A stretch of DNA of 64,000 nucleotides from an uncultured bacterium (GTDB taxonomy: Bacteria; Patescibacteriota; Minisyncoccia; Phycocordibacterales; Phycocordibacteraceae), in contig CALFMK010000001.1 of assembly GCA_937879955.1 (NCBI GenBank), positions 361,853-425,852 of the forward strand. The letters are read 5' to 3'. A program made the position numbers and the translations under genes. A model generated the notes under the pieces. The model searched no databases. It saw nothing but the letters and a program-made list of their open reading frames with translations, and was not told where the DNA came from. Below, piece after piece: positions 21,435-53,324 of this stretch (position 1 is the first letter of the stretch; each line of letters begins with the position of its first letter).

Positions 21435-23462
<2,028 letters not shown>

Positions 23463-23485: not shown

Positions 23486-24751
23486 TCAGTAGGAGATGAC
23501 CACGAACCCGCCGCCGCCTGCGCCGCCTGTCTGCGTGCCCGAATAGCCTGCCGCACCGCCGCCGCCTGCGCCGCGCCCGCCCGCACCGCCGTTACCGCCA
23601 TACCAGCCCGCACCGCCACCGCCGGCACCGAATCCTCCTGCGCTGCCGTTCATGTTGTTCGGAGCCGATGATCCAGAACCCGGACCGGTACCCGGTGTGC
23701 CAACCGGCGATCCTGCTGCCGTAAGCGCCGCAAAGAGCCCGCTGACATCTGTCGGCGTTCCTCCGGTCCCGCCAGCAGCGCCACCTGACGCCCCGCTACC
23801 GCCACCTATCGATCCACCGCCACCGCCACCCGTATCCCCGGACGTGCCGGAACCGGAACCTCCAGTTGCACCGCCGTCGCCGCCCGAATATGATCCGCCA
23901 CTTCCTGCAGAGCCGCTATTGTAAGAGCCTCCTGTCCCGCCGTTTCCAGATATCGTCGTACCGCCAACGGTAACGGTCGTATTGCCTCCGGAGGTACCGT
24001 TACTGCTCGAGGAGCCGCCGGCGCCGGTAGCACCGATAGCATAGGAAACCGTACTGCCGCCAGTCACGACGAACGTCCGGTACGACACGCCGCCTGCGCC
24101 GCCTGCGCCGCCCGACGTGCCGTCATTAGCAATCGAACCTGCGCCGCCGCCGCCGCCGCCAACTGCCCACACCTTGATCGAAGTTACGCCCGTCGGCACG
24201 GACCAGCTCGTCCCTGACGTGAGGAGCACACTTCCGCTCGGCACCACGATCGGCGGAATGGCCGTCGTCGAGGCGTCGTAGGTCACCTTGAGCCCGCGCT
24301 CGATGCGTCTCGGGTCCGAGGTACTGCAGGAGTTGTAGCCGGTAGCATAGATGCAGCTGGTCGCCGACGTGCCGCTACAGATGGGACCGTTCGTCTTATA
24401 GACCGTCACGGAACCGCTCACGCCGTTCGCGCAGGGCGTCGAGAACGTCGTCGTGCGAATACCTCCGGAGACGCTCGTCACGGGCGTTATGTCGGTCGCG
24501 GCGCATCTGATCGTAGAGAGCGGAGTCGTGTAGTCGAACGCGTTCTGCTTCTGGTCCCAGTAGAGGGCGCATTCCATGGCGGCGTCGGCGGCATAGAACG
24601 CGTACTGCGACTGGCGGGCGGTCGAGGAGAGCGTCACCTGCTTGTATGAGATATCGAGGAGCGCGAGGCCGATCGAGAGGAGCACCGAAGTGAGCACCAC
24701 GGCGACCAGGAGCGCGAATCCGCGTGTCTGCGTGTTCATGAGGTTCATCAT
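23486..24751 (-). CDS. PilX-like minor pilin with extremely Gly-rich (GGxGG) C-terminal half
   Basis: PilX_N-like hydrophobic N-terminus (TRGFALLVAVVLTSVLLSIGLALL). About 200 aa of Gly/Ser/Thr/Ala low-complexity repeats at the C-terminus. The ORF-track 5' extension is antisense junk. Confidence 0.6.
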   Translation of the reverse strand: MMNLMNTQTRGFALLVAVVLTSVLLSIGLALLDISYKQVTLSSTARQSQYAFYAADAAMECALYWDQKQNAFDYTTPLSTIRCAATDITPVTSVSGGIRTTTFSTPCANGVSGSVTVYKTNGPICSGTSATSCIYATGYNSCSTSDPRRIERGLKVTYDASTTAIPPIVVPSGSVLLTSGTSWSVPTGVTSIKVWAVGGGGGGAGSIANDGTSGGAGGAGGVSYRTFVVTGGSTVSYAIGATGAGGSSSSNGTSGGNTTVTVGGTTISGNGGTGGSYNSGSAGSGGSYSGGDGGATGGSGSGTSGDTGGGGGGSIGGGSGASGGAAGGTGGTPTDVSGLFAALTAAGSPVGTPGTGPGSGSSAPNNMNGSAGGFGAGGGGAGWYGGNGGAGGRGAGGGGAAGYSGTQTGGAGGGGFVVISY

Positions 24752-25284
24752 AGCCAATCGTAGAGGCGTTCGGTTATCACCACGGTGCGCGCCTGCCCGC
24801 GCGAGGTCCAGGCGACCGTGACCGTGAGGACCATCTCCGTAGTGCTTCCCGCCACGGCCGTGAGGCGGACCGTGCGGGTATACGGGGTCGTCGTGCCTGA
24901 TCCTCCCTGCCCATAGAAGCCGGACGCGTCGAGCGTCATGGGCGCGACCGTCCTGCTCACGGTGTTGCGCACGATGTCTACGACGCAGTCCCCCGTTATG
25001 CAGTTCGCGTACGTGGTCGGGTACCCGGCAGTCCCGTCGACGCCCGCGAGCCAGGTCCGCGCGCCCGGGTTCGCGATGTTGTAGAGGTAATTGCTGTCGC
25101 GCATGGCCCGGACGTACTCCACGCCCTCCTGGGCGAGCGAGGACGCGACGAGCTGCTCGCGCGCATTCCTCGATATGTTGAGCGACTGCTGCACCGCGTA
25201 CAAGGGACCCACGATAGCCGTCAGGATCACCGTGATGGCCACGAGCGTCTCTACGAGCGTGAATCCTCTCATCGGTGTCATCAT
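24748..25284 (-). CDS. type IV minor pilin (prepilin-type N-terminal cleavage/methylation domain)
   Basis: Prepilin N-terminus MRG-FTLVETLVAITV, with ATGA overlap to the PilX-like gene. Confidence 0.7.
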   Translation of the reverse strand: MMTPMRGFTLVETLVAITVILTAIVGPLYAVQQSLNISRNAREQLVASSLAQEGVEYVRAMRDSNYLYNIANPGARTWLAGVDGTAGYPTTYANCITGDCVVDIVRNTVSRTVAPMTLDASGFYGQGGSGTTTPYTRTVRLTAVAGSTTEMVLTVTVAWTSRGQARTVVITERLYDWL

Positions 25285-25835
25285 ATCTCGAGATAGCGCT
25301 GGGTCGCGCTCGTCTGCACGGCGAAGTTCGTCGTCTCCCCCGCATCCGTCGTCATGGTGCCCTTCAAGGCGAAGGTCACCTGCGGCTGGATGCGGTCGGT
25401 CGCGCCGACGCCGACCACGTAGAACTTGAGCGAGGTGATCGAGATGCGCGGGTCAGTGAGCGAGACGGCGGTCGCGCTCGTGCACACGCCGCCCGTGCAC
25501 TGACCGATGCTCCCATTGGACTTCAGGAGGTAGGTTACCGTCTGGCCCTGCGCGTCGACGAAGGCGATGCTCGTCCCGCCCGACGAGCAGTTGGGCGACG
25601 AGCTGCTCTGGTTGCACATGTAGGTCGTGCCGGTGCGCATCGAGCGGGCCATGCTCTCCACCGCGAACGCGAGCGTCGCCGAGAGCTGGTTGCTCGCGCG
25701 CGACTGGCGATCGAGGCTGATGAGCGTGAGGTACGCGCCGGTGACGACCACCATCACCATGCTGAAGAGGCCGAGCGATACGATGAGCTCGACCAGGGTA
25801 TATCCGCGCTTCGTCCGTGCGTTCATCATGGGCAT
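25281..25835 (-). CDS. type IV minor pilin
   Basis: Prepilin N-terminus KRG-YTLVELIVSLGLFS, and a Cys-containing C-terminal domain. Confidence 0.7.
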   Translation of the reverse strand: MPMMNARTKRGYTLVELIVSLGLFSMVMVVVTGAYLTLISLDRQSRASNQLSATLAFAVESMARSMRTGTTYMCNQSSSSPNCSSGGTSIAFVDAQGQTVTYLLKSNGSIGQCTGGVCTSATAVSLTDPRISITSLKFYVVGVGATDRIQPQVTFALKGTMTTDAGETTNFAVQTSATQRYLEI

Positions 25836-26524
25836 TCCGTATCTCCCTTAGTATGCACCGAGACCTGCCCGACGCGTGAGACGTAGATGCACCGCTCGAC
25901 CGCGCCGTCGGGCGACTGGACGCGGATGGTCGCGTCCGAGAGCGGGACGCGCACGCCCGCGCGCACGCCCGTCACCACGGACTGCGTATTCGGGCGCTGA
26001 TAGACGATATCGAGCGCATCGAGGTAGTCGTTGCAGCGCAGGGTACCCACGCCCGTCTCGACGCCGCAGAAGCTCTTTATCTTGAACCCGCCGTTGAAGC
26101 TGTACGTGCGCACGATCTCCGAGGCGAGCGTCTGGATGCAGTCTCCCGGCTTCGCCTCAGGGCCCGTGGAGACCGTATGCCCCGGACAGACGGATGCCGT
26201 CTGCACGTTGCCGGCTGCGACCGGCGAGATGTCGGCGAAGAGGCTGTACGCGTTCAGGGTGCCGGACGAGAAATGGACCCCGTACCCCGCGTTCTGTACG
26301 CTGCTGAATACGCGGCTCGAGAGGCCGAGCGACTGCGCCTCGCGCACCAAGAACGCGATCGTATAGGCGGTATCGGTGAGCGTGAGGGAACGGTTGAAGG
26401 AGGTCTGTCCGAGCAGCGCGATGGTCGTGATGATCACCATGATCGACACCACCACGAGCATCTCTACCAGGGTGAACCCTCGGGCAGGCATGGGGCTTAG
26501 AGTGTGAGGAAGAGAGGGTTCCAT
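25826..26524 (-). CDS. type IV minor pilin (GspH/FimT-like)
   Basis: ARG-FTLVEMLVVVSIMVI prepilin N-terminus. An alternative start at 26491 would avoid overlap with pilD. Confidence 0.65.
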   Translation of the reverse strand: MEPSLPHTLSPMPARGFTLVEMLVVVSIMVIITTIALLGQTSFNRSLTLTDTAYTIAFLVREAQSLGLSSRVFSSVQNAGYGVHFSSGTLNAYSLFADISPVAAGNVQTASVCPGHTVSTGPEAKPGDCIQTLASEIVRTYSFNGGFKIKSFCGVETGVGTLRCNDYLDALDIVYQRPNTQSVVTGVRAGVRVPLSDATIRVQSPDGAVERCIYVSRVGQVSVHTKGDTECP

Positions 26525-27255
26525 TGGGTGAAGAACGCGAGGAGGTATCCCGCAGCGAGGAACGGCACGAAGGGCACTTCAATACCCATTCTATGGCCTT
26601 TAGGGGTAGCGGCCAATATCGCTATCCCGACAAGCGCGCCGATCCAGAACGAGAACAGGAGTCCCGGTATGGCGAGCGAGCCGCCGACCAGGATCGAGAG
26701 CGAGAGCGCCACGGGCGCGTCCCCGAGCCCCATGGCACGCCCGCCGGAGAGCGTGTGGAGGAGGAAGAAGCCGAGCGATATCACGCCCGCTACCATGAGC
26801 GCGAGACCGAGCTGCACTCCCCACCCCATAGAGAAGAGCGCATACAGGAACGAGAACGCGAGGAGCAGCGCAGAGGAGGCCATGGGCACTATGGTGTGCC
26901 GGAGGTCGTACATGACAATGAAGGCGAGGACCGTGAACGCGGCGAGGAGCGGCGCGAGCGGAAGCATGAGACCGACCTTTATATACGCGAGCGCGAACGC
27001 GGTCCCGAGCAGGAACTCGCCGAGCGTGTAGAGGAATGGCACCCGCGCATGGCACGTGCGACACCGCCCGCGGAATGCGAGCCAGGAGAGGACCGGTACC
27101 AGATCAGGCGCCGAGAGTTCCCTGTTGCAGGAGTTGCAGTGCGAGCGCCCCTTCGCCCAGGACTGTCCGGTATAGAGGCGTTCAGCAATCACCGCCATGA
27201 AGCTCGCGAGGATGGAGCCGAGCGCGAAGAAGGCGAAGGCGATGAGGTACGTCAT
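26497..27255 (-). CDS. pilD: prepilin peptidase (A24 family) with N-terminal zinc-finger
   Basis: CNSC...CRTC tetracysteine motif, a polytopic membrane domain and catalytic Asp contexts (GLGDAP). Confidence 0.8.
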   Translation of the reverse strand: MTYLIAFAFFALGSILASFMAVIAERLYTGQSWAKGRSHCNSCNRELSAPDLVPVLSWLAFRGRCRTCHARVPFLYTLGEFLLGTAFALAYIKVGLMLPLAPLLAAFTVLAFIVMYDLRHTIVPMASSALLLAFSFLYALFSMGWGVQLGLALMVAGVISLGFFLLHTLSGGRAMGLGDAPVALSLSILVGGSLAIPGLLFSFWIGALVGIAILAATPKGHRMGIEVPFVPFLAAGYLLAFFTQWNPLFLTL

Positions 27256-27337
27256 GAGATCAGTATACCTCGCATACTGAAGGCAAAAGAAAGAATCCGC
27301 CTCAAGGCGGATTCTTTCTTTGAAATCACGAGACTAC

Positions 27338-27817
27338 TTAGTTGCAGTCCTGGTCGCCACTGGCAATCTTGTAGGTTGCCGTAGTAGTAGCGTCTCCGCT
27401 CGAATCAACGCAGTAGAATCCCGACGTCTTAAGAGGGACAGAAGCAGCCCATGCCGTTGCGGTCGCGAAGCAAGTCTCAGCCACGGTGTCATAGGAAGTG
27501 TTGCTACGACCATACGCGGTAATAGCAGCATCAACGCCATCTCCGATGACGTTCACCCCTACCGTGTTGCAGACGCTGGCGTAACTGTTGTTATTGCCGT
27601 CAAAATACAACTCAGCCTCCGCACGAGCATTCGCGAGGTTCGACTTCACTGCTGCGTCCGCGCCGCGATTACGCGCCGTGTTGAGGGACGCGAGCACTAC
27701 TGCCGAAAGGATACCGATAATTGCAATCACGACGAGAAGCTCGATGAGCGTGAAGCCGCGGGAAGTGTTGGGTGACGACATAATATTAGGATTCTTCATG
27801 AACGTACTATACGACAT
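27338..27817 (-). CDS. type IV pilin (major-pilin-like), paralogue 1
   Basis: SRG-FTLIELLVVIAIIGILSAVVLASLNTARNRGADAAVKSNLANARAEAELYF, then a variable Cys-containing C-terminal domain. Confidence 0.8.
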   Translation of the reverse strand: MSYSTFMKNPNIMSSPNTSRGFTLIELLVVIAIIGILSAVVLASLNTARNRGADAAVKSNLANARAEAELYFDGNNNSYASVCNTVGVNVIGDGVDAAITAYGRSNTSYDTVAETCFATATAWAASVPLKTSGFYCVDSSGDATTTATYKIASGDQDCN

Positions 27818-27905
27818 ACTTGCTACCCTTTAGGCAGAGGGTATATGGGGATAACAAAAGCGCCCGTTTCGCGGGCGCTTTTGCAGGTAACAGAATCTGC
27901 AGGGC

Positions 27906-28376
27906 CTAGCAGGCGTAGTCAGTACCGCTTGTGATAATACCTACTGCAGAGGTCGTAGCAGCACCGGTGCTGTCGACACAGTAGACGGTCGTACCACCCT
28001 TGAGACCGACGGCCGCTGCCCAAGCAGTTGCGCTCGCGTTACATACCGCAGTCGAACCAGAGCTACCGGCGCTGTTTGTGCTGTAGGAAGTGAAGCCGGC
28101 AGCGGCAGCAGCAGCCTGAACACTGTCTCCGATGACGTTGGCTGTCGTCGTGTTCGCACAAACGCCGGTATAAACATTGTTGTTGCTGTCATAGAACAGC
28201 TCAGCCTCCGCGCGAGCATTGGCGAGGTTCGACTTAACAGCTGCGTCCGCGCCGCGATTACGCGCCGTGTTGAGGGACGCGAGGACGACGGATGAGAGGA
28301 TGCCGATGATGGCGATCACGACGAGAAGCTCGATGAGCGTGAAGCCGCGTTCAGCCTTAAGGTGTCCGAGAGTCAT
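27906..28376 (-). CDS. type IV pilin (major-pilin-like), paralogue 2 (tandem duplicate)
   Basis: N-terminal ~60 aa nearly identical to the 27338..27817 product. Its C-terminal domain has diverged. Confidence 0.8.
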   Translation of the reverse strand: MTLGHLKAERGFTLIELLVVIAIIGILSSVVLASLNTARNRGADAAVKSNLANARAEAELFYDSNNNVYTGVCANTTTANVIGDSVQAAAAAAGFTSYSTNSAGSSGSTAVCNASATAWAAAVGLKGGTTVYCVDSTGAATTSAVGIITSGTDYAC

Positions 28377-28497
28377 AAATGTCTATAAAAGTAAGTTATT
28401 GCGCAGGATGGGTAATATCCGCTTCCCTGCATTGTACGCCACGCCCTCTCTTCATATTCGGATTATGGGGATAACAGCTTGATTTTTATTAACTTTC

Positions 28498-29706
28498 TTA
28501 AGATATGCCTCCTGCCACGTTGTAGATAGGGATGAGTACGGACGCGAGGAGCGTTCCCACGCCGAGACCGAGCAGCACGATCATGAGCGGCTCAATGAGG
28601 TCCACGAGCGTATCCACGGCCGTGGTCACCTCGCGCTGATAGAAGTGCGCGAGCGTGTTGAGGATCTTGCCGAGCTCTCCGGTCTCCTCTCCCACGCGCA
28701 CCATGGCCGTCATGATGCCCGGGATCTCCGCATGGAGCGCAAGCGCGTCCGAGATCGAGGCGCCTCCCTTCACCGCCTCCCCCACCTCCTTCAGGATGTT
28801 CTCGTACGTCGGACTGCCCACGACCGATGCCGTAATATCGACCGCCTCGACGACCGGCACGCCGGACACGAGCATCGTCGCGAAGTTGTCCGCGATGCGC
28901 GAGAGGTAGAGCTTCTGGTACAGGTCGCCGATGTACGGCACGTCGAGCTTCGTCTTGTCGAAGAAGAGCCGTCCGGACTCGGTCTGCAGCGCGCGGTACG
29001 CGAAGAACGCCGCGACGCCGAGCCCCACCAGGAACAGGAAGCCGTAGTTCACGAGGAAGTCCGAGAGCCCGATGACGATCTGGGTATAGATAGGGATCGC
29101 CTGCCCCGAGTCCTTGAGGATGCTCGCGATGCGCGGGATCACCATCGTGAGCATGAGCGCCATCACGACGAAGAACACGCTGATGGTGAAGGCCGGGTAG
29201 ATGAGCGCGCTCGTCGCCTTGTTCATCACCTCGTACGTGCGGTCGAGATAATCCGCGAGATAGCCGAACGTCTCCGAGAGCTTTCCGGACTCCTCGCCCG
29301 AGCGCACCATGTTCACGTAGAAGGTCGTGAACACCTTCGGATGGCGGCTCAGCGCCTTACTGATCGGGCTTCCGCCCTGGAGGTCGTCGGCGACCTGCGT
29401 CATGATCTCCGCGAGATAGGTGTTGTCCACCTCCGCCGCGAGGAGGCGGAAGATGCGGAGCGCGGACACCTGCGCCTCGAAGAGCGTCGCTATCTGCCGC
29501 GACAGGATGACCACGTCCTTGTTCGAGACGTGCCGCAGGAAGCTGATCTCGACGTTGAAGCCGGCCTTCTTCTGGATCGGCTCTATGGACGAGACGATGA
29601 GACCGCGGCGCTGCAGGGTCGAGACCGCGACGTCGACGGAGAGCGCCTCCACCGTGCCTGCGCGCTCGCGGCCGTCCTTATCGAGTGCATGGTAGGAGAA
29701 GAGCAT
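28498..29706 (-). CDS. pilC: type IV pilus platform protein PilC (GspF family)
   Basis: Two GspF-like repeats with three TM segments, 402 aa. Confidence 0.85.
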   Translation of the reverse strand: MLFSYHALDKDGRERAGTVEALSVDVAVSTLQRRGLIVSSIEPIQKKAGFNVEISFLRHVSNKDVVILSRQIATLFEAQVSALRIFRLLAAEVDNTYLAEIMTQVADDLQGGSPISKALSRHPKVFTTFYVNMVRSGEESGKLSETFGYLADYLDRTYEVMNKATSALIYPAFTISVFFVVMALMLTMVIPRIASILKDSGQAIPIYTQIVIGLSDFLVNYGFLFLVGLGVAAFFAYRALQTESGRLFFDKTKLDVPYIGDLYQKLYLSRIADNFATMLVSGVPVVEAVDITASVVGSPTYENILKEVGEAVKGGASISDALALHAEIPGIMTAMVRVGEETGELGKILNTLAHFYQREVTTAVDTLVDLIEPLMIVLLGLGVGTLLASVLIPIYNVAGGIS

Positions 29707-29712
29707 AGGGTT

Positions 29713-30780
29713 CTATAGGTAGCGCTCGAAGGTCTTCGGGTCGTTCGCGCGCTCGTACGCGTGCTCGATCGTCACCTCGCCGCGACGCACCAGCTCGGCG
29801 AGCGAGCGGTCCATGTCGATCATGCCCTCCTGGGAGCTCGTCTGGATGACGGTCGTGATCTCGTGCGTGCGACCCTCGCGGATGAGGTTCGAGACGGCGC
29901 TGTTGTTGATAAGGAGCTCGTAGGCCGGAAGCTGCCCGCCGGAGATGCGCGGCACGAGGCGCTGGCTGAAGATGCCGGCGAGGGATCCCGCGAGCTGCAC
30001 GCGGACCTGGTCCTGCTGGTTCGGCGGGAACATGTCGATGATGCGGTCGATGGTCTGCGCCGCGTTGTTCGTATGGAGCGTCGAGAGCACGAGGTGGCCG
30101 GTCTCTGCCGCGGTCACGGCCGAGGATATGGTCTCCTGGTTGCGCATCTCGCCCACCATGATCACGTTCACGTCCTCGCGGAAGGCGGCGTTGAGCGCGG
30201 AGTGGAAGTCCGGCGTGTCGATATGGACCTCGCGCTGATGGATGAGGGACTTCTTCTGGTCGAAGATGTACTCGACCGGGTCCTCGATCGTCACGATGTG
30301 CTCGGCGCGCGTCTCGTTGATGCGGTCGATGATGGTCGCGAGGGTCGTGGACTTGCCCTGCCCCACCGGACCCACCACGAGGAAGAAGCCCTGGGAGCGC
30401 TGGCTGAACACCTCGAGGATCGGGGGCAGGTTCAGGGACTCGAAGGAGCGGATCTCGTGCGGGATGAGGCGCATGGCTATCGTCACGCCGCCCTGCACGT
30501 AGTAGCCGTTCACGCGGAAGCGGGATTGCGCCGTGTGCGCGTATGAGAAATCGATGGACTGCTCCTTCGCGAAGCGATCGAGGCGTGAGGCCGGCACGAT
30601 GCTCTTGAGATAGCTCTCCGACATCTCGGCGGTGAGCACCGGATGCTGGAGGAGCGGCACGAGCGAGCCCGAGATGCGGAGGATCGGGTTGCTGCCAACC
30701 GAGAGATGGAGGTCGGACGCGCCTTCGCTGACGACCGTATCGAGGAGGGCTTTCAGGCTTGCGGAGGCCTGCTCGTTCAT
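29713..30780 (-). CDS. pilT: type IV pilus retraction ATPase PilT
   Basis: Walker A GPVGQGKSTT, Asp and His boxes, about 355 aa (PilT/PilU size). Confidence 0.85.
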   Translation of the reverse strand: MNEQASASLKALLDTVVSEGASDLHLSVGSNPILRISGSLVPLLQHPVLTAEMSESYLKSIVPASRLDRFAKEQSIDFSYAHTAQSRFRVNGYYVQGGVTIAMRLIPHEIRSFESLNLPPILEVFSQRSQGFFLVVGPVGQGKSTTLATIIDRINETRAEHIVTIEDPVEYIFDQKKSLIHQREVHIDTPDFHSALNAAFREDVNVIMVGEMRNQETISSAVTAAETGHLVLSTLHTNNAAQTIDRIIDMFPPNQQDQVRVQLAGSLAGIFSQRLVPRISGGQLPAYELLINNSAVSNLIREGRTHEITTVIQTSSQEGMIDMDRSLAELVRRGEVTIEHAYERANDPKTFERYL

Positions 30781-31166
30781 GCCTTCGCCTCGATTATCTT
30801 CATGGTCTCCGCGAAGACCTCAGACGGGATGGCAGACGCCTTGATGATGTAGCCGTCCGCACCCAGCTGCTTGGCGTTCACGATATCGGACTCCTGGCCC
30901 TGGTTCGAGAGGACGATCACCTTCATCGTCGGCGCGAGGTTCTCGCGCTTGATGACCTCGAGGATCTCGAAGCCGGTCATGCCCGGCATGACGATGTCGA
31001 TGAGGAGCGCGTCAGGCGCCGGCTGCTCGCGAAGCGCCTTGAGCACCTCTTCCCCGCCCGAGAAGGCGGTCACCTCGTGCCCAGCCGCCTTGAACTTCAC
31101 GGCATACATATCGAGGAGGAAGCGGTCGTCATCGACGAGATAGAGGCGGTAAGGGTTCGTAGGCAT
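30777..31166 (-). CDS. single-domain CheY-like response regulator (PilH/PilG-like)
   Basis: Receiver residues DDD...D (LVDDD, LIDIVMP) plus K, overlapping pilT by 4 bp. Confidence 0.75.
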   Translation of the reverse strand: MPTNPYRLYLVDDDRFLLDMYAVKFKAAGHEVTAFSGGEEVLKALREQPAPDALLIDIVMPGMTGFEILEVIKRENLAPTMKVIVLSNQGQESDIVNAKQLGADGYIIKASAIPSEVFAETMKIIEAKA

Positions 31167-31177
31167 GATGGGTCGTT

Positions 31178-32965
31178 TTAGGCGGGAATCTTCTCCTCGT
31201 CCTCCAGAAGCGTCTGGCCGCCCAGGGCGTTCACTTCCTCGAACGGGATCAGTCCTGCTAACGCCTTAATGATAGCATCCTCGCGCATCGTAAACATGCC
31301 CTTCTTGCGGGCGGCGGCGTAGACGCTCTCCTCGGTCGGCTGGGTGAGCACCACATGCTCGAGCTCCTTGTCCATGCGCAGGAGCTCGAAGACGGCGAGG
31401 CGGCCGCGGGTGCCGTTCGGGCAGTCCGGGGACGGCGCGGCCGTGTAGAACGTCTCGAACTTCGGGAGCTTCTCGCGGAACTCGGGCGCCAGATCCGAGA
31501 ACTCGTGCTCGAGGAGCCCCTGCATGCTCTCCGTGAGCGGGAACGGCTTCCCTGCGCCCGGACAGAGCTTCCGCACGAGGCGCTGGCCGATGGCCGCGAT
31601 CAGGGTCGGCGCGATGAGGTACGGGTCGACGCCCATGTCCACGAGGCGCGGGATCACGCCGGCCGCCGTGTTCGTATGGATCGTCGAGAACACGAGGTGT
31701 CCCGTGAGCGCCGCCTGGATGGCGAGCTGCGCGGTCTCCTTGTCGCGGATCTCTCCCACCATGATGATGTCCGGGTCCTGACGGAGGATGGAGCGGAGGC
31801 CGGAGGCGAAGGTGTAGCCGATCTCGGGGCGCACCTGCGACTGCGCCACGCCCGGGATCTCGTACTCGACCGGATCCTCGACCGACACCACGTTCTCCGT
31901 CTCGCGATCGAGCTCCGAGATCATGGAGAAGAGGGTCGTCGACTTTCCGGAACCGGTCGGTCCGGCGATGAGGACGATGCCGTACGGCTGCTTGATGATG
32001 TCCCGGATCTGCGCGAGGTCCGCGGCGGAAAGGCCGATCGACTCGAGGGTCGTCACGGACTTCGCGCTGTCGAGGATACGCATCACCACCTTCTCGCCGG
32101 CCTGCGTCGGGAAGGTCGAGACGCGGAAATCGATGCGGCGTCCCTCCACGGTCGCGGAGAAGCGTCCGTCCTGCGGCTTGCGCTTCTCGTCGAGGCGCAT
32201 CTGGGAGAGGATCTTGATGCGCGCGACCACCGCAGGATGCACCTTCGCCGGAAGCTCGAGAGAGGTATGGAGCTCGCCGTCCATGCGGAAGCGCACGCGC
32301 GTCTTCTCGGGCGTCGGCTCGATATGGATGTCGGACGCGCCGCCCTCAACCGCGTAGCGCAGGATCGTGGCGACGATTTTCGTCACCGGCGCGTCCTCCT
32401 TTATGTTCGCCTCGGCCGCCTCCTCGGTCTTGTCCTTCTCTGCGCCCGGCGCGGCGGCGGCGGAGCCCTCGTACTGCGAGAGCGCCTCCCCCACCACGCC
32501 CGAGAGGTCCTCGTACTCCTTGAGCACCTTCTCGAAATCGGAGCGCGAGATCAGGAAGAGCTTGTACGGCATCCCCACGCGCGAGGATATGAACTGGAGC
32601 GCGTCGAGCGCCTCGATGTTGTCCGGGTCGAGTATGCCCACCTCGAGCGCGCCAGAGGCGTTCGCGATAGGAACGAACTGGTAGTGCCGTGCGGACTCCT
32701 CGGGGATATACGCGAGCACCTCCTGGTCAGCGAGCTCGGCTGGAAGCTGGCGGTACGGGATGCCGTACTTCTCCGAGGCCACCGCGTACGCCTTCTCGGC
32801 CGTGATGCCGTGCTTCTCGAGGACCGCCTCGAGATCGGTGTCGGGCGCGCGCGTCTCTTCGGTGATAGCGGCAACGTCCGCGGGCGTGAGCATGCCCTTC
32901 TCGGCGAGGAGCGTTACGAGGTTCATGCGCAAGGGCGCAGGCCGCTCGCCTGCGATGATAGGCAC
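31178..32965 (-). CDS. pilB: type IV pilus assembly ATPase PilB (GspE family)
   Basis: N-terminal GSPII domains, Walker A GPTGSGKSTTL and a tetracysteine-like region, 595 aa. Confidence 0.85.
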   Translation of the reverse strand: MPIIAGERPAPLRMNLVTLLAEKGMLTPADVAAITEETRAPDTDLEAVLEKHGITAEKAYAVASEKYGIPYRQLPAELADQEVLAYIPEESARHYQFVPIANASGALEVGILDPDNIEALDALQFISSRVGMPYKLFLISRSDFEKVLKEYEDLSGVVGEALSQYEGSAAAAPGAEKDKTEEAAEANIKEDAPVTKIVATILRYAVEGGASDIHIEPTPEKTRVRFRMDGELHTSLELPAKVHPAVVARIKILSQMRLDEKRKPQDGRFSATVEGRRIDFRVSTFPTQAGEKVVMRILDSAKSVTTLESIGLSAADLAQIRDIIKQPYGIVLIAGPTGSGKSTTLFSMISELDRETENVVSVEDPVEYEIPGVAQSQVRPEIGYTFASGLRSILRQDPDIIMVGEIRDKETAQLAIQAALTGHLVFSTIHTNTAAGVIPRLVDMGVDPYLIAPTLIAAIGQRLVRKLCPGAGKPFPLTESMQGLLEHEFSDLAPEFREKLPKFETFYTAAPSPDCPNGTRGRLAVFELLRMDKELEHVVLTQPTEESVYAAARKKGMFTMREDAIIKALAGLIPFEEVNALGGQTLLEDEEKIPA

Positions 32966-33041
32966 CTGATAGAGGAAGCGTCCGTCATGCTTATGAAAGT
33001 GTACTACGGCATCCGCGGTACGCGCGCGATGGCGCCGTGCA

Positions 33042-33353
33042 TTACTTCGACGACACGCCCGGGATCGGCGCGAACGGGTCAGGACGACCGCTCGGCTCGG
33101 GCACGATGACGGTCTTTATGTCGACGAGCTGGGTGAACCTTGGATCCTGGAGGATCGCCGTGTCGAAGCCGACCGGATCGAGCTGGGCCGCGAGCGTGAG
33201 GAACGTCGCCTGCGCCTCGTTGGTCGCAGCTCCCGTCTCGCCTACGGAGATAGGAGCCTCGCTCGCAGGACGCATCCAGAGGAAATACGCCACGAGGCCG
33301 AGCACGACGATGCCGCTCGCTATGAGGATGGTGGTGTTCTTGGAGATCGCCAT
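33042..33353 (-). CDS. small membrane-anchored protein in pilus locus (possible PilP-like accessory)
   Basis: One TM helix then a Pro-rich C-terminus. Its position between pilO and pilB is the only functional hint. Confidence 0.35.
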   Translation of the reverse strand: MAISKNTTILIASGIVVLGLVAYFLWMRPASEAPISVGETGAATNEAQATFLTLAAQLDPVGFDTAILQDPRFTQLVDIKTVIVPEPSGRPDPFAPIPGVSSK

Positions 33354-33363
33354 AGGGTACGGA

Positions 33364-33930
33364 TTAGCGGAGCCAGTAAATGCGGAACGTCATGGTGTAG
33401 GTATAGACGCCGGTCGCCGAGTCCTGCACGGAGAGCTCGACCACGTCGAGCGGACGCAGGCTCTTCTCGAGGCCGTTGAGGAAGACGCGGAAGGCCTCAT
33501 AGCTTCCCGTCGCGGAGACCGAGACCTCGAGCGAGTCCGTAGACTCGCCGCTCGTGAACACGGAGTCGGGGGTCGCAGCGGCGGCGGCGTCACCTGCCGC
33601 GGAATCCTCGCCGCTCACGCTGAACTGCGAGAGCTCGACGCCCGAGCGCGCGGCGAGCGAGTTGAGGTCAACGATGAGCTGCACGTTGTCGACGCTGTCA
33701 GGCAGCGCGGCGTTCAGGCGCTCGAGCTGGTCGGCAGGGATGGTGCTGCGCTCGCGCGTGAGCGCCACCTCCTTCTCCTTGAAATCGCGCGCGGCCTGCA
33801 GCGCGGTGTCGAGGCTCTTGTTCTCGGCGGAGAGCGTCGCTATCGAGCCCGAATAGGTCGGCTGGATGTACCCGAAGAAGAGGCCGCCAGCGGCAATCAC
33901 GAGGAGGATGGGAATGAGGCGGGAGATCAT
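33364..33930 (-). CDS. pilO: type IV pilus biogenesis protein PilO-like
   Basis: N-terminal TM, a coiled-coil and a C-terminal ferredoxin-like domain, adjacent to pilN. Confidence 0.6.
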   Translation of the reverse strand: MISRLIPILLVIAAGGLFFGYIQPTYSGSIATLSAENKSLDTALQAARDFKEKEVALTRERSTIPADQLERLNAALPDSVDNVQLIVDLNSLAARSGVELSQFSVSGEDSAAGDAAAAATPDSVFTSGESTDSLEVSVSATGSYEAFRVFLNGLEKSLRPLDVVELSVQDSATGVYTYTMTFRIYWLR

Positions 33931-34721
33931 AGCGCAGGTGCGGATACCGGTGGGGTCGATGTCCCCTTCGCAGGGGCAGTGGTCGTAGCCGTCTTGGTCG
34001 TCGTGGTCGCAAGCGGCGCGCCCGGGAGCGTCGCCGGCACGATGTTGCTCGCCGACGCCGGCTCTTCAGGCTCGCTTATGCCCGGAAGGACCTCCGCGGA
34101 CGTGATGAGGCGCGGCTCTATGCTGGCCGAGAGAGAGAACGAGACGGTCCCGTTCTCGTTCAGGGAGATGCCGGAGAAGATGGCGCGCTTGATCTGCTTC
34201 TCGGCGGCGAGCTGCGTGCTCTGCGCGGCGAGCGCGTTGAAGTTCTTCGCGACGCCCTCCATCTGTATCTCCGCCGAGCGGTCCTCGTCTACCGAGAGCT
34301 TGAGGCCGCTGAAACGGACGGTCTGGAGCGTGCGCAGCTCGAGCAGGTCGAAGAACTCGGACAGGATGACGTGCTCGTCGAGGAGCGATTCGAGCGCGGC
34401 GAGACGCCCGCGAAGGCGTATGAAGTCCTCGACCGTATCGATATTGACCGCCTTCTGCGCTTCTTCGAGCTGGACGGTCTTCGACGCGTGCGCGCCCTTG
34501 AGATAGAACTCGTACGCGAACACGGCTCCGGCGATGACGACGCTGGCCGCGGCGACGGACGCGCCGATTATCATGAATACGTTCACGCCGCTCTTCGCGC
34601 GGCGCGCAGGCGCTGCCGCGACCGGCTGCTTAGGGACGAACGAGGTAGGTATGGTCGGAGGAAGGGCCACGGTGGGTACAGTATACGGGAAAACGCGAGC
34701 GCTGGCTGCGCCCTTATGCAC
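33927..34721 (-). CDS. pilN: type IV pilus biogenesis protein PilN-like
   Basis: Single TM (VFMIIGASVAAASVVIAGAVFAY), coiled-coil, and a Thr/Pro/Ala-rich C-terminal tail. Confidence 0.6.
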   Translation of the reverse strand: MHKGAASARVFPYTVPTVALPPTIPTSFVPKQPVAAAPARRAKSGVNVFMIIGASVAAASVVIAGAVFAYEFYLKGAHASKTVQLEEAQKAVNIDTVEDFIRLRGRLAALESLLDEHVILSEFFDLLELRTLQTVRFSGLKLSVDEDRSAEIQMEGVAKNFNALAAQSTQLAAEKQIKRAIFSGISLNENGTVSFSLSASIEPRLITSAEVLPGISEPEEPASASNIVPATLPGAPLATTTTKTATTTAPAKGTSTPPVSAPAL

Positions 34722-34727
34722 AGAGCC

Positions 34728-35819
34728 CTACCCTCCCTCCTCCTCGAGCTTGCGGAGCGCGAGCCCGACCGCGACCGCGAACTCAGGGCCGATGGCCTGA
34801 AGCACCGGACGCATGAAGGCGGGCGCCTGGGTCTTCCCGAACGGGTCGGCGATGCGCACGTCTATCGAGAAGAAGGTCTTCGCGTACGCTTCGAGCTCCT
34901 TCGTGACGCCGCCGCCTCCCGTGAGGACGAGCCCGGAGATCTTCTTACCCTTAACGGACTCGTACTGGCTCGCCGCGCGCTTCGCCTCGTCGAAGATACG
35001 CGAGAAGACGAGCTCGATCGAGCGTCGGTCATACGCGCCGTCCGATTTCGCGAACCCGTGCTGCTTCTTCAGGGTCTCCGCGCTCCCCACCGAGATACCG
35101 CTCGACGTGGCGATGGTGCGCGTCACGTCCTGGCCGCCGCGCGGGATGTTGTGCGAGAGTGCGATGACGCCGTGCTCGACGACGTACATCTTCGTCGCGG
35201 AGGCTCCGATATCGAGCACGAGCACCGGCTTCACCGGCTCGTCCACGACCGAGCGGATCGTGCTGAATATCTCTATCTCGTAGAACGAGGCCTCGAGCTC
35301 GGTCTGGCGGACGACGCTCTCAAGGAGCGCGAGCTCGTCGTTATGGACCGCGACGAGGAGCACCTGGATCTTCGAAGGAGGCTCCGCGCCCTCCGGGATC
35401 GCGTCCGGGATGACGAACCAGTCGAGCTGGACCTCTGAGACCGGGACCGGGATGTACTTCCTCGCCTCGAGCTCGATGACGGTCTTCTGCTCTTCGGGAT
35501 TGTCCCGGCGAGGCAGCTCGACGAGCGTGAGCAGGGAGCGCGAGAACGGGATGGACATGCCCGTGTTCTTCGTCGTGACATTCGCCTCGCGCAGAAGGTC
35601 GGCGAGCGTCTCCGCGATCTTCGAGGCAGGCAGGTTCGTCGCCTGCCCCACCTCGACGCCGGCATACGGGCCGAGCGCGAGCTCGCCATACGTCTCGAGC
35701 ACCGCGACGCCGCGATCGCGACGGAGCTGCACCACCTTCAAGGAGGACGAGCCGATATCGATGCCGATGACGCTCCTCGATTTCTTGTTCCCGCTGAACA
35801 GTTTTGACAGGAAGCTCAT
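34728..35819 (-). CDS. pilM: type IV pilus assembly protein PilM (actin-like ATPase fold)
   Basis: IGIDIGSSSLKVV phosphate-1 motif and FtsA/PilM-like architecture. Start set at MSFLSKLF. Confidence 0.8.
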   Translation of the reverse strand: MSFLSKLFSGNKKSRSVIGIDIGSSSLKVVQLRRDRGVAVLETYGELALGPYAGVEVGQATNLPASKIAETLADLLREANVTTKNTGMSIPFSRSLLTLVELPRRDNPEEQKTVIELEARKYIPVPVSEVQLDWFVIPDAIPEGAEPPSKIQVLLVAVHNDELALLESVVRQTELEASFYEIEIFSTIRSVVDEPVKPVLVLDIGASATKMYVVEHGVIALSHNIPRGGQDVTRTIATSSGISVGSAETLKKQHGFAKSDGAYDRRSIELVFSRIFDEAKRAASQYESVKGKKISGLVLTGGGGVTKELEAYAKTFFSIDVRIADPFGKTQAPAFMRPVLQAIGPEFAVAVGLALRKLEEEGG

Positions 35820-35842
35820 TGGGGCGATTGTATCATGCAGAC

Positions 35843-36469
35843 ATGAAGGTATTCCGCGTATTCCTCGACATCCTCTTCCCTCCTCGCGCGAACGAGGCGC
35901 TCGTGACGAGTGCTTCGAGCGAGTCGCTCGGCGTGCATGCGCGCGCACGCGTGGCAGGCATGCACATCGCGGTCCTGTTCCCGTACCGCACCCGACTCGT
36001 CCGCGCCTGCGTGCTCGAGGCGAAGTTCCGTGACAGCGAGCGCGCCCAGCGGCTTCTCGGCCGCGCGCTCGCCGACTACCTGCTCGAATGGAGCGCGGAG
36101 CGTGAAGCGTTCACGGAAGGAGCTATCACCCTCATACCGATCCCACTCTCCCAGGAACGTATACGGGAGCGCGGATACAACCAGACGGAACGCATCGCGC
36201 GCGACGCTGCACAATCGACCCAGTCCATAGCGATCGACACCGGCCTCCTCGCCCGCCCGCGCAACACCCTTCCCCAGACAAGCCTCGGCAAAGCGGAGCG
36301 CCGAGAGAACCTCAAGGGCGCCTTCCAGGCTGTGAAAGCCCTGGATCCGGACCATACCTATATAGTGTTCGACGACGTGCTCACGACCGGAAGCACGCTC
36401 GAAGCTGCCATGGATGCGCTGCGAGACGCCGGGGCGCGCCGCATCTGCGGCCTCGCATTGGCGCATTAG
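35843..36469 (+). CDS. comFC: ComF-family competence protein (phosphoribosyltransferase domain, ComFC-like)
   Basis: C-terminal PRTase motif YIVFDDVLTTGSTLEA. Divergent from pilM. Start set at MKVFRVF. Confidence 0.7.
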   Translation: MKVFRVFLDILFPPRANEALVTSASSESLGVHARARVAGMHIAVLFPYRTRLVRACVLEAKFRDSERAQRLLGRALADYLLEWSAEREAFTEGAITLIPIPLSQERIRERGYNQTERIARDAAQSTQSIAIDTGLLARPRNTLPQTSLGKAERRENLKGAFQAVKALDPDHTYIVFDDVLTTGSTLEAAMDALRDAGARRICGLALAH

Positions 36470-36512: not shown

Positions 36513-37148
36513 TTGATGCGCTATCCAAACAAATCCCATCGTCATGCCGTTACACTGCCGTCGCCTTCTGTGGAATTGGCAGAGTTCATAGGCATCATGC
36601 TCGGAGATGGCGGACTAAGCAGGTACCAGGTCTCAATATCGCTCAATCAGGAGAGCGATTCTGAATTCAGTGAATTTGTTTGCTCCCTGATACAGGAGCT
36701 CTTTGCCGTCACGCCGAGCGTGTACGATCGCAGGAATCAGCTTCTTCGTACCCTAGTCATATCCCGAACCGAACTCGTAGAATATCTTCACGGCCTCGGG
36801 CTTCCCATAGGGAACAAGGTCTCGCAAGAGTGCGACATCCCCGATTGGATACGTCGCGACCGATCATTCCTTACGGCGTGCATCCGGGGACTTGTCGACA
36901 CGGACGGGTCCGTATTCACTCATCGTTACCGAGTGAACGGGAAATGGTATGCATACAAGAAACTCTCCTTCACCAGCGCATCGCAGCCACTTTTGCATTC
37001 GGTACTGGAATCGCTCATTTCATTCGGCATGCATGCGCGCATAGGCAGTGCCAAGGATGTCCGCATCGACAGCAAAGCCGATATGGAACGTTATTTCACC
37101 CTCATCGGGACGAGCAATCCTAAGCATTTGAGAAGATATGCCTTTTAA
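36513..37148 (+). CDS. LAGLIDADG homing endonuclease (two-motif, free-standing)
   Basis: Two LAGLIDADG blocks (FIGIMLGDGGL and IRGLVDTDGSV) spaced about 100 aa apart. Confidence 0.8.
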   Translation: MMRYPNKSHRHAVTLPSPSVELAEFIGIMLGDGGLSRYQVSISLNQESDSEFSEFVCSLIQELFAVTPSVYDRRNQLLRTLVISRTELVEYLHGLGLPIGNKVSQECDIPDWIRRDRSFLTACIRGLVDTDGSVFTHRYRVNGKWYAYKKLSFTSASQPLLHSVLESLISFGMHARIGSAKDVRIDSKADMERYFTLIGTSNPKHLRRYAF

Positions 37149-37166: not shown

Positions 37167-37254
37167 GGAGACGTGGGTGAGCTGGCCGAAACCACCACAC
37201 TGCTAACGTGGCAGGGGGTAAAACCCCTCGAGAGTTCGAATCTCTCCGTCTCCG
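37167..37254 (+). tRNA. tRNA-Ser (anticodon GCT), class II with long variable arm
   Basis: Acceptor GGAGACG/CGTCTCC, 3-bp D-stem, anticodon loop CTGCTAA, variable arm GGGGG-TAAA-CCCCT, T-loop TTCGAAT. Confidence 0.8.
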
Positions 37255-37260
37255 CAAAGA

Positions 37261-41362: not shown

Positions 41363-41887
41363 CTAGGACGCGCACGTGGGCGAGAAGTACGATATGTCGA
41401 GATTAATATTGTCATTCCTGGTCGGCGACCCGCTCGATCCATGCAGCCCGTCCGGTCCGGCCGAGAATACGATGTCCTTCCTGCAATTGCCGCTCTCAAG
41501 CTCGTTCTCATCAATAAGATAGACATTCCCCCATGGATCCCTGAATCCGCTCGCGATGAACGCGTCCAGCATGCCTCCGGATGCGGTGTTTATCTTCCCG
41601 AACTGCGTCTGCATGAACGAGATGCAGCTTGCGCTATTTATATTTGCGTCGATGCATGCACCTGCGCTGTTGCCGGAGCCGGTTAGGTCGGAAAGTATCT
41701 TCCCGCTACTCAGTCGCGCCTGATCTATGGCAAGCGCAACCTGGCGCAGAGCCTGCCTGGTCGCTGCCACGCGAGCGCGTTCGCGGGCGGTCGACAAGGA
41801 CGCGAGCACCACCGCAGACAGCACGCCGATGATCGCGATCACCACGAGGAGCTCGATGAGGGTGAAGGCGCGGTATGCGGATCTCAT
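41363..41887 (-). CDS. type IV pilin-like protein (tandem paralogue A)
   Basis: N-terminus YRA-FTLIELLVVIAIIGVLSAVVLASLSTARERAR. The C-terminus has GFRDPWGNVY and a Cys pair. Start set at MRSAYRA. Confidence 0.7.
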   Translation of the reverse strand: MRSAYRAFTLIELLVVIAIIGVLSAVVLASLSTARERARVAATRQALRQVALAIDQARLSSGKILSDLTGSGNSAGACIDANINSASCISFMQTQFGKINTASGGMLDAFIASGFRDPWGNVYLIDENELESGNCRKDIVFSAGPDGLHGSSGSPTRNDNINLDISYFSPTCAS

Positions 41888-41940
41888 GCGTCTAATGATA
41901 CCAGAGGCGTCCTTTCGTTCAGGTTCGACCAGGAAGACTA

Positions 41941-42468
41941 TCAGGATGCGCACGTAGGCGAGAAGAAGGAGAGATACAAATTGATATTATCGAGACGCGT
42001 CGGCGAGCCGCTCCCTCCATGGATACCGTCGGGTCCGGCGGAGAAGACCAGGTCCTTAGTACTACAGGAGCCATTCTCAAGCTCGTTCTCATCGAAGAGG
42101 TAGACGTTCCCCCACGGATCCCTGAAACCGCTCGCGATGAACGCGTCGAGCATGCCTCCAGATGCCACATTTATCTTGGTAAATTGCGCTTGCATGTTTG
42201 CAAGACATCCCGCGCTATTCATATTCGGATCAACACAAGCAGCCGCGCTGTAGGTTGAATTAGTAATATCTTTCAATACCATGCCGCTCTGAAGACGCGC
42301 CTGATCTATGGCGATAGCCACCTGGCGCAAGGTCTGCTTCGCAGAAGCGGTCCGCGCGCGGTCGCGGGCGGTCGACAAGGACGCGAGCACCACCGCAGAC
42401 AGCACGCCGATGATTGCGATCACCACGAGGAGCTCGATGAGGGTGAAGGCGCGGTATGCGGATCTCAT
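41941..42468 (-). CDS. type IV pilin-like protein (tandem paralogue B)
   Basis: About 70% identical to paralogue A across the full length, with an identical N-terminus and C-terminal SPTCAS. Confidence 0.7.
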   Translation of the reverse strand: MRSAYRAFTLIELLVVIAIIGVLSAVVLASLSTARDRARTASAKQTLRQVAIAIDQARLQSGMVLKDITNSTYSAAACVDPNMNSAGCLANMQAQFTKINVASGGMLDAFIASGFRDPWGNVYLFDENELENGSCSTKDLVFSAGPDGIHGGSGSPTRLDNINLYLSFFSPTCAS

Positions 42469-47959: not shown

Positions 47960-48033
47960 GCACCCTTAGCTCAGTTGGTTAGAGCACCGAGCTTATACCT
48001 CGGCGGTCCTTGGTTCGAGTCCAAGAGGGTGCA
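47960..48033 (+). tRNA. tRNA-Ile with anticodon TAT (UAU)
   Basis: Acceptor GCACCCT/AGGGTGC, D-arm TAGCTCAGTTGGTTAGAGC, perfect anticodon stem CCGAG/CTCGG, loop CTTATAC, T-loop TTCGAGT. Confidence 0.7.
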
Positions 48034-48106
48034 CCGATTTACGGGAAGTGCGTAGACGGGGCTTTTCTGGTACGGTGCAATCAGGTAAGACAGAAGGAGT
48101 ACTGAT

Positions 48107-50422: not shown

Positions 50423-50890
50423 ATGCTGGTACCCTTCCTATATATGAGCGCACTCATAGAGAACAAGAAGGCGCGCCTCCGGTTCGAGGTGCTTGAGACC
50501 TACCAGGCAGGCCTCGAGCTCCAGGGGTTCGAGGTGAAATCCGTCCGGGCGAAGCTCGGCAGCCTCGACGGCTCCCGCGTGATCGTGCGCGGGGGCGAGG
50601 CCTTCATCGTCGGCATGACGGTCCCTCCCTACCAGGCCGCGAACGCGCCCAAGACCTATGACCCAGAGCGTCCGCGCCGCCTCCTCCTCTCGCGCAAGGA
50701 GATCGTCGAGCTGCTCGAGGCAGAGTCGAAGAAAGGATTGACACTAGTGCCTTTGGAACTGTATAATAGTGGCAGATACCTGAAGGCACGCATCGCCATC
50801 GTCCGCGGAAAAGGCAAGGCTGACAAGCGCGAAGACATGAAGCGCATGGAGGCTAAGAAGGAAGCGGACCGTGCGATGCGCCAGAAGTAG
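50423..50890 (+). CDS. smpB: SsrA-binding protein SmpB
   Basis: Conserved SmpB blocks (IENKKA..F, GFEVKSV, RKLLL.K.EI). The real start is probably at 50444. Confidence 0.8.
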   Translation: MLVPFLYMSALIENKKARLRFEVLETYQAGLELQGFEVKSVRAKLGSLDGSRVIVRGGEAFIVGMTVPPYQAANAPKTYDPERPRRLLLSRKEIVELLEAESKKGLTLVPLELYNSGRYLKARIAIVRGKGKADKREDMKRMEAKKEADRAMRQK

Positions 50891-51258: not shown

Positions 51259-51667
51259 GGGGGTGACCGGCTTTGACGGTCCTGTACTTTGAGAGACGTG
51301 CGGCGCGGTGGAAGGATGCTGACCACCTAAAAACGCATTCACCCAAACTTGCCAAGAACACTCTTGCAAGCGTGAAGTCCCCGTACTTCGGTATGAAGGA
51401 TTTCGCGTTCGCTTACGCGTAAAAGCTTCGCGCTTTCGCCTGAGCGACGTTCATGCAGTCCCGTTCCTTCAGGGGTCTGTATGGGCGGAATCATCTGAAG
51501 GATCGGTATCGCGGCTTTCCCAGGCCACGGCTTAAAAGACGGGATCAGGCAGGGGCGTTTTCGCTAACGTTCCTATTCCCCTGCCGAAGCTTCAACGTTA
51601 GCTACGCGCCGTAGACTCGCTCTTGAAGCAGGATTCGGACCGGAGTTCGACTCTCCGCACCTCCACC
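51259..51667 (+). ncRNA. ssrA: tmRNA (ssrA), standard one-piece
   Basis: 5' GGGGGUGACCGGCUUUGACGG matches the tmRNA 5' consensus. The 3' tRNA-like end is GGACCGGAGTTCGACTCTCCG-CACCTCC-A-CC, whose acceptor is complementary to the 5' end. It lies 370 bp downstream of smpB. Candidate tag ORF is ...KSPYFGMKDFAFAYA*. Confidence 0.7.
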
Positions 51668-51693
51668 GATATAGAACTATGTAGAAATACATA

Positions 51694-51733
51694 GAACATT
51701 AGAAAACCGCCTCATGGGCGGTTTTCTAATGTT
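51694..51733. terminator. 18-bp perfect hairpin (GAACATTAGAAAACCGCC-TCAT-GGCGGTTTTCTAATGTTC) between ssrA and the convergent DUF305 gene
   Basis: Seen directly in the sequence, with T-tracts inside the 3' arm on both strands. Confidence 0.55.
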
Positions 51734-51746
51734 CTACAGCTAGGAG

Positions 51747-52142: not shown

Positions 52143-52182
52143 AGAGTTTAATTAGATTAGATAAGTAGAGAGTTTGCTAAAT

Positions 52183-52551: not shown

Positions 52552-52630
52552 GCACTCATTCTATACCTATTGTTTATGGACAAAAGGTACACTTCTTCTA
52601 GGTATTACTGGCTCACAGCACATAAATTTT

Positions 52631-53089: not shown

Positions 53090-53324
53090 ATGGCAAATCG
53101 AGGTAGGTTCTAATCTGAAAGCACCCGACTTCCATGTTTGTATGGACTGGTTGGCCTCTGCTCATTTTGACACCCTACCAACTGTCCGCTACAGAAAGGA
53201 AATACGAAGCCCTGCTTTCCAGTCATGAGGCTCTAACTTCGTGTAGCCACTTCCATCCAGTTTCAATAAAAGGCCTCTTCGGAGGCCTTTTATGTTGGCA
53301 CGTCTTGACGGTTTTTTTGGGGTT

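Follow-up and report, generated by a model that had tools for sequence, protein, structure and literature searches.

A stretch of 64,000 nt from contig CALFMK010000001.1 of an uncultured bacterium (hereafter the window) carries a compact array of 15 minus-strand genes, running from 35819 down to 23486, that encodes a type IV pilus (T4P) machine. The array is very probably the core T4P operon of the Parcubacteria/Paceibacteria, the counterpart of the PilT-containing T4P-1 of Saccharibacteria. Its genes follow the order pilM, pilN, pilO, a gene for a 103-aa membrane protein, pilB, a CheY-type receiver gene, pilT, pilC, two pilin genes, pilD and four minor pilin genes. This order is conserved among relatives, and no secretin is encoded in the 64 kb. 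A first-pass annotation of the same DNA had proposed a complete pilus machine with both PilB and PilT, and this is supported, the machine being type IVa-like. All the genes that it named are present on the minus strand between 23486 and 35819. It counted thirteen of them, which is an error, as its own list sums to 15.

Components of the operon

Open reading frames (ORFs) of the window were listed, translated and scanned against Pfam and NCBIfam, with the Pfam gathering score (GA) as the threshold for Pfam families. For PilM, PilO, PilB, PilT and PilC, the score is at or above a family threshold of Pfam or NCBIfam. Spacing within the array is mostly 12 nt or less, or the genes overlap; four gaps, around the pilin genes and before pilB, measure 76-121 nt. 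A promoter and terminator scan of the locus gave counts not above those of shuffled sequence, and an Rfam scan found only tRNAs and one tmRNA, none of them within the pilus locus.

Two motors of opposite function are encoded. PilB (31178-32965), with an N-terminal MshEN/GSPII_E_N domain, scores 394.8 bits for T2SSE and 58.2 bits for MshEN, which places it among the PilB-type assembly ATPases that drive extension. PilT (29713-30780) is a retraction ATPase by its TIGR01420 score of 428.7 bits, above the cut-off of 319.1, and it carries AVSNLIREGRTHE, the AIRNLIRE-type motif of PilT ('AVSNLIRE'). The platform protein PilC (28498-29706) has two T2SSF domains (189.4 bits) and scores 343 bits with GspF and 298 bits with PilC of the Thermus type.

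The alignment proteins precede the motors. PilM (34728-35819), the actin-like cytoplasmic member, matches PF11104 with 134.8 bits (GA 27) and TIGR01175 with 161.8 bits (cut-off 133). PilO (33364-33930) matches PF04350 with 22.8 bits (GA 22), and a profile of 29 PilO orthologues finds in the PDB the PilO of M. xanthus (3jc8, E 5e-11) and that of P. aeruginosa (2rjz, E 0.007). Between them lies the gene for a PilN-like bitopic protein (33927-34721, start codon uncertain), a position conserved among related loci. PF05137 is matched by 10 of 24 of its orthologues (best E 1.4e-7), and a PilN profile gave no match among PDB sequences, so that the protein is best called a probable PilN at the level of the family. 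With PilN recognised through its orthologues, the PilM-PilN-PilO alignment complex is represented in full.

The pilins carry class III leaders of the form G|F(T/A)L(I/V)E. PilA1 (27906-28376; leader G|FTLIELLVV) and PilA2 (27338-27817) are 65% identical, with N_methyl scores of 35.3 and 38.6 bits. The prepilin peptidase PilD (26497-27255) passes with its N-terminal domain (A24_N_bact, 84.9 bits). It is followed by minor pilins 1 (25826-26524; G|FTLVEM; N_methyl 27.4 bits), 2 (25281-25835; G|YTLVEL; 27.5 bits) and 3 (24748-25284; G|FTLVET; 21.4 bits, GA 21.2), whose order is conserved, and by minor pilin 4, described below. N_methyl is at or above GA in six proteins. PilC, PilD and pilins with class III leaders are thus all present. 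Outside the operon, four more prepilin genes with G|FTLIELLVV leaders occur at 41363-42468, 56100-56741 and 57836-58390; two of them are tandem paralogues with a T2SSG-like domain.

Conservation among relatives

Relatives were collected by a PilB-based scan with one genome per species, and synteny was examined by tblastn of all window proteins against 80 fetched loci (given L numbers below). The best PilB relatives belong to uncultured Patescibacteria: identity is 83% for one metagenome-assembled genome (MAG) and 73% for a MAG of the Paceibacterota. Candidatus Kaiserbacteria and other Paceibacterota come next at 63-66%, then Taylorbacteria, Yanofskybacteria, Colwellbacteria, Moranbacteria and others. 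By its sequence, the organism is a bacterium of the candidate phyla radiation (CPR) within the Parcubacteria/Paceibacteria.

The arrangement is near-invariant across about 25 loci, in which PilB identity goes as low as about 50%: comF (divergent), pilM, pilN, pilO, the small-protein gene, pilB, the receiver gene, pilT, pilC, one or more pilin genes, pilD, four minor pilin genes and ligA. It is still recognisable in more distant Parcubacteria. The last member, the NAD-dependent DNA ligase gene ligA (21435-23453, minus strand, identified by its Pfam ligase domains), is the operon's conserved downstream neighbour; more than 20 related loci have it after the minor pilin genes. Since the order is kept across relatives, the operon is a vertically inherited core and not a peculiarity of one genome. 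Published surveys agree. Meheust et al. (2019) describe co-localised PilB/T, PilC, PilO, PilN, PilM and PilD in many CPR genomes (PMC6744442), and Nelson and Stegen (2015) describe a conserved Parcubacteria core that holds a T4P operon together with ComEC, ComF and DprA, with PilQ as the one missing gene (PMC4508563).

Many of the fetched loci (L039-L080) show a second, PilT-less pilB-pilC(-pilM) arrangement, like T4P-2 of Saccharibacteria. In the saccharibacterium TM7x, T4P-2 lacks PilT and promotes host binding (PMC11623550).

The receiver between the motors

The gene between pilB and pilT (30777-31166) encodes a stand-alone CheY-type receiver, a single-domain regulator with a Response_reg score of 78.1 bits. 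Across 18 receiver orthologues, D13, D14, D57, Y106 and K109 never vary, and position 87 is kept as S/T (S87 in the window protein). Because the acidic pocket, D57, S/T87, Y106 and K109 are retained, the receiver is predicted to be phosphorylatable. Its gene lies between pilB and pilT in most, not all, related loci. Single-domain regulators of the PilG/PilH type and other response regulators act on PilB or PilT (for example, by its title, PMC13507683). By analogy, the receiver most likely modulates extension versus retraction, and its placement between the two motors suggests that this balance is under two-component control. Elsewhere in the window, one histidine kinase is encoded at 15239-17227.

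A phage-fibre-like domain on the last minor pilin

Minor pilin 4 (23486-24751, minus strand) is a PilX/GspK-like pilin extended by a C-terminal glycine-rich domain. It begins at 24751 with MMNLMNTQTRG|FALLV, its first 4 nt overlapping the stop of the gene before it, and comprises 421 aa. It lacks Glu5 and matches PilX_N below threshold (17.1 versus 25.5 bits), as expected for a capping pilin. The glycine-rich domain takes up the C-terminal ~260 aa (about 23486-24270). PF21722 (Gly_rich_2) covers it with the full model at a weak 15.9 bits (GA 24.3); in the orthologue P0186 the same family reaches 26.8 bits, above GA. PHROG 863, a tail family, also matches minor pilin 4 (E 8.5e-6). The AF2 model shows a pilin-type helix and sheet followed by a confident beta-rich domain, for which Foldseek returns the fibre of cyanophage Pam3 first (7ypx, E 2.4e-4), then the glycine-rich domains of LTK/ALK and the tail tip of mycobacteriophage Bxb1.

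The same fusion of pilin and glycine-rich domain is present in the metagenomic proteins P0186, P0188, P0197 and P0209, which share the pilin N-terminus. In the nearest relative, L001, the protein consists of the pilin part only (~150 aa) and has no glycine-rich domain. A variable domain of the receptor-binding type, displayed at the tip, would fit a role in attachment. This pilin, with a domain resembling phage receptor-binding fibres that varies between close relatives, is a candidate host-recognition adhesin.

A widespread small membrane protein

Between pilO and pilB lies a gene (33042-33353) for a conserved 103-aa bitopic membrane protein of an unannotated family. Besides an N-terminal transmembrane helix and a short amphipathic helix, it has a linker that varies and, at the C-terminus, a conserved segment that closes with GR(D/N)PFaP, in which G89, R90, P93 and F94 are at least 90% conserved in the family. 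The protein has no match in Pfam, PDB or PHROG. A word-indexed search gave 36 close homologues, all hypothetical and free of Pfam domains. A profile search of 1.84 billion cluster representatives gave at least 1149 matches at E<=1e-3, of which 101 reach E<=1e-10; the ones listed are mostly 90-150 aa long. The first-pass annotation had called the gene locus-specific; it belongs instead to a widespread conserved family. With a local hidden Markov model (HMM), a member was found immediately before pilB in about 36 of the 80 fetched loci, and a few members add a C-terminal domain like fibronectin III. The first-pass annotation had also suggested predicting the structure of the protein alone. The resulting AF2 model contains the transmembrane helix, a helix at 44-57 and an extended tail with no globular fold (predicted local distance difference test 71, predicted template modelling score 0.28), and the protein is probably ordered only within a complex.

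The position after pilO, the membrane anchor and the short helix recall the N-terminal half of PilP, which consists of a lipid anchor and a short helix that lies against the PilN-PilO coiled coil (PMC11525922). The resemblance goes no further than analogy. Pseudomonas PilP also has an R-S-P-F motif. Nevertheless, membership in the PilP family is rejected as unsupported, the Pfam, PDB and hhalign results being negative with a 6-residue motif as the sole likeness. None of 33 family members matched PF04351 (PilP) in hmmscan at a maximum E of 10, where the HMMER filters drop most hits above ~0.1, and the family profile matched no PDB sequence. In hhalign, the probability of a relation to the Pseudomonas PilP alignment is 0.15%, the local alignment being the 6-residue RxPFxP only (E 0.077). 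The protein has a transmembrane helix in place of a lipobox, shows no beta domain in the AF2 model and ends ~10 residues past the motif.

Two further leads were set aside. A PilP-like lipoprotein after pilO in L074 ('VRDPF') is not recognised as PilP by Pfam and was not used as evidence. In the Moranbacteria loci L036, L042 and L044, the PilO-like proteins have ~80 additional aa and a terminal motif like GRPNPF; fusions of PilO with the small protein were considered there and rejected as too weak, since only the terminal motif matches (E 0.06).

As homology to PilP is unsupported, we treat the 103-aa protein as a conserved membrane protein accessory to the Parcubacteria pilus machine. That it is an analogue of the PilP N-terminal half is a tentative proposal. 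It might, in the extended form of this idea, be an unrecognised fourth subunit of the alignment complex, a transmembrane-anchored functional analogue that binds the PilN-PilO coiled coil and, with no secretin to bind, lacks the domain for doing so. With the CheY receiver and the phage-fibre-like tip pilin it would then define a CPR-specific machine. We regard this as possible though doubtful. A very widespread small membrane protein beside pilO and pilB is a candidate for a missing subunit of the machine.

The ComF-like neighbour and DNA uptake

On the plus strand at 35843-36469, divergent from pilM with the start codons 23 nt apart, lies a gene for a ComF-like protein of the phosphoribosyltransferase (PRTase) fold. 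This divergent position is conserved in 30 loci. The protein matches GntX (E 1.8e-19), falls well below the cut-off for TIGR00201 comF (67.6 versus 233.6 bits) and narrowly below GA for Pribosyltran (26.1 versus 26.3). It retains the PRTase motif region and has lost the N-terminal four-cysteine zinc finger. Of the first-pass annotation's divergent comFC, the divergence thus stands, while the identity as ComFC stays below threshold. The CxxC...CxxC zinc finger is lost in the clade of the window and, among L001-L053, kept in the distant Parcubacteria L007, L016, L019, L022 and L024-L044.

The description of the region as a competence locus is overstated, as the sole competence-related gene is this sub-threshold ComF-like one, and ComEC, ComEA and DprA are not encoded in the window. 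The strongest rival to a retractile pilus is nevertheless a dedicated competence pseudopilus of the ComG type, serving mainly DNA uptake with the ComF-like protein and the DNA ligase. The conserved flanks, with the ComF-like gene divergent from pilM and ligA downstream, speak for it, as does the fact that CPR bacteria lack nucleotide synthesis while their core genome still includes ComEC, ComF and DprA (PMC4508563, PMC6744442). The components of the machine argue otherwise: the motor scores 261 bits with ComGA versus 502 with PilB/GspE, the platform protein 123 with ComGB versus 343 with PilC/GspF, and ComG systems have neither PilT nor PilMNO. The ComF-like protein falls short of its family and lacks the zinc finger, and the window holds no ComEC, ComEA or DprA gene. 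In TM7x, moreover, the pilus mutants tested, those of T4P-2, kept wild-type competence (PMC11623550), so a role of the pilus in DNA uptake can only be suggested. We consider a ComG-type pseudopilus unlikely and retain the retractile T4P.

Absence of a secretin

A two-batch domain scan of the ORFs called across the 64 kb found no Secretin, ComEC or ComEA domain, and every unscanned gap within the 64 kb is too short to hold a secretin gene. The 1.5 kb past the right end of the window holds only adk and gmk. A PilQ secretin of the diderm form is therefore absent from the 64 kb and the 1.5 kb on the right, and to this extent the earlier statement that no PilQ lies in or near the locus holds. A secretin gene immediately outside the window, which the first-pass annotation had named as evidence against itself, is not found in those 1.5 kb, the only flanking stretch examined. 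The accompanying suggestion of a monoderm or non-classical envelope agrees with the literature on Parcubacteria, which gives the same operon, no PilQ and a probable lack of an outer membrane (PMC4508563, PMC6744442).

The organism could instead have an outer membrane and encode its secretin, with PilP, elsewhere, as in Pseudomonas, where pilMNOPQ lie apart from pilBCD. In favour of this, only ~65 kb of the genome were seen, and one OD1 organism has been claimed to possess an outer membrane, in a report that PMC4508563 cites. On the other side, pilQ of diderms normally follows pilMNO(P), and here pilO is followed by the small-protein gene and pilB, also in relatives; the protein after PilO has no secretin-binding beta domain like that of PilP; and the CPR-wide family survey of Meheust et al. 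did not find PilQ, consistent with the lack of a Gram-negative envelope (PMC6744442). An outer membrane with a distant secretin gene is thus highly improbable.

Weighing of the assignment

Several points weigh against the assignment to a core Parcubacteria pilus. PilN scores 21.3 bits for PF05137, 1.5 bits under the GA of 22.8; the first-pass annotation had made its reading depend on PilM, PilN and PilO passing HMM thresholds, which PilM and PilO do and PilN narrowly does not. PilB reaches 502 bits for TIGR02538 (equivalog cut-off 675) and 507 bits for GspE, both below the cut-offs and nearly equal. The Peptidase_A24 domain of PilD, at 25.4 bits, is just under its GA of 26.5. Beyond the 64 kb and 1.5 kb inspected, the case against a secretin is one of analogy to the published CPR surveys. 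Finally, the function proposed for this lineage is a prediction from the genes.

The near-equal motor scores also bear on a type II secretion-like pseudopilus that exports proteins and forms no surface fibre, for which it can be said that the GspE and GspF models score equal to or above those of PilB and PilC and that PilO also weakly matches GspM; with a PilT above its family cut-off, PilM in place of GspL, no GspC or GspD, two major-type pilins, pili seen on CPR cells in the literature, and type II secretion being an outer-membrane system, this is barely credible.

A model of the machine

For the core T4P operon we infer the following mode of action. PilD would cleave the class III leaders of the two major-type pilins and the four minor pilins. 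The platform in the cytoplasmic membrane would consist of PilC, the PilM-PilN-PilO alignment complex and, probably, the 103-aa protein. PilB would polymerise the fibre and PilT depolymerise it. Fibre assembly would be primed by the four minor pilins, which would also occupy the tip; the last of them would display its glycine-rich, phage-fibre-like domain there. A secretin would be unneeded in a cell without an outer membrane. The phosphorylatable receiver would probably bias the motor between extension and retraction. In vivo, such a pilus may retract and may serve attachment, twitching and DNA uptake, and the parts given here to the receiver and the small protein are likewise putative.

Other features of the window

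Next to the ComF-like gene, a free-standing LAGLIDADG-type endonuclease ORF (36513-37148, plus strand) lies beside tRNA-Ser (37167-37255), and the same spot next to comF is occupied in this way in L003 and L032. A second ORF beside a tRNA, at 3003-3695 (minus strand) next to tRNA-Met (2927-3001), looks LAGLIDADG-like from reading its sequence only, its Pfam matches being helix-turn-helix domains. A tRNA-Ile with the anticodon TAT (UAU) at 47960-48035 represents an uncommon bacterial way to read AUA. The tmRNA gene (51259-51668), with smpB at 50423-50890, is followed by a patch of low GC content (0.50-0.55 versus ~0.62 overall) within 51259-56000. DUF305 proteins, an SDR, TspO and a PNPOx-like protein are encoded in this patch, possibly an island that inserted at the tmRNA gene. 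A candidate cell-surface adhesin is encoded at 5636-8152, an 839-aa secreted protein with beta-helix/pectate-lyase-like adhesive domains and a C-terminal peptidoglycan-binding domain. A membrane-anchored two-domain multicopper oxidase (1353-2570; Cu-oxidase_3, Cu-oxidase_2) is putatively NirK-like; such an enzyme would be an unusual metabolic trait in a CPR bacterium with a small genome.

Comparison with known systems

In the Gram-negative type IVa machine of P. aeruginosa and M. xanthus, the motors, the platform, PilM-N-O, the peptidase and the four minor pilins with a PilX/GspK-like cap are homologous to those encoded here. The present locus differs in having no PilQ, PilP lipoprotein, TsaP or PilY1, and in having the transmembrane-anchored 103-aa protein at the gene position of pilP. 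In the T4P of Gram-positive bacteria, we know of no equivalent of the GR(D/N)PF small protein, of the CheY gene within the operon or of the conserved comF and ligA flanks. These pili, in Clostridium and Streptococcus sanguinis, are like the present one in being secretin-less and in using PilM/N/O with PilB, PilC, PilD and PilT (Melville and Craig 2013, cited in PMC4508563).

T4P-1 of Nanosynbacter lyticus TM7x comes closer. It comprises PilC, PilB, PilT, PilM/N/O, PilD and five pilins, is essential, and has been inferred to power twitching (PMC11623550). The same components lie in one secretin-less locus, which is the retraction-capable one of two systems. TM7x belongs to another class of Patescibacteria, and its PilX proteins resemble carbohydrate-binding or -cleaving folds and not the glycine-rich domain; a receiver gene and a small protein after PilO go unmentioned for T4P-1 in the available sections of that paper (PMC11623550).

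The closest match is the core operon of the Parcubacteria and other CPR bacteria, from the same phylogenetic group, in which PilB/T/C/M/N/O/D and pilins are co-localised, PilQ is absent and ComF is near (PMC4508563, PMC6744442). Nothing essential is different. Three features go unmentioned in the available sections of these papers: the glycine-rich tip pilin, the 103-aa protein and the receiver gene. These conserved, so far undescribed details are of modest value, and what interest the locus retains lies in them. A secretin-less retractile T4P in CPR bacteria has already been published, and the present locus is an ordinary example of it. It adds nothing new to the published picture of a conserved secretin-less retractile pilus, thought to serve host contact, twitching and possibly DNA uptake.

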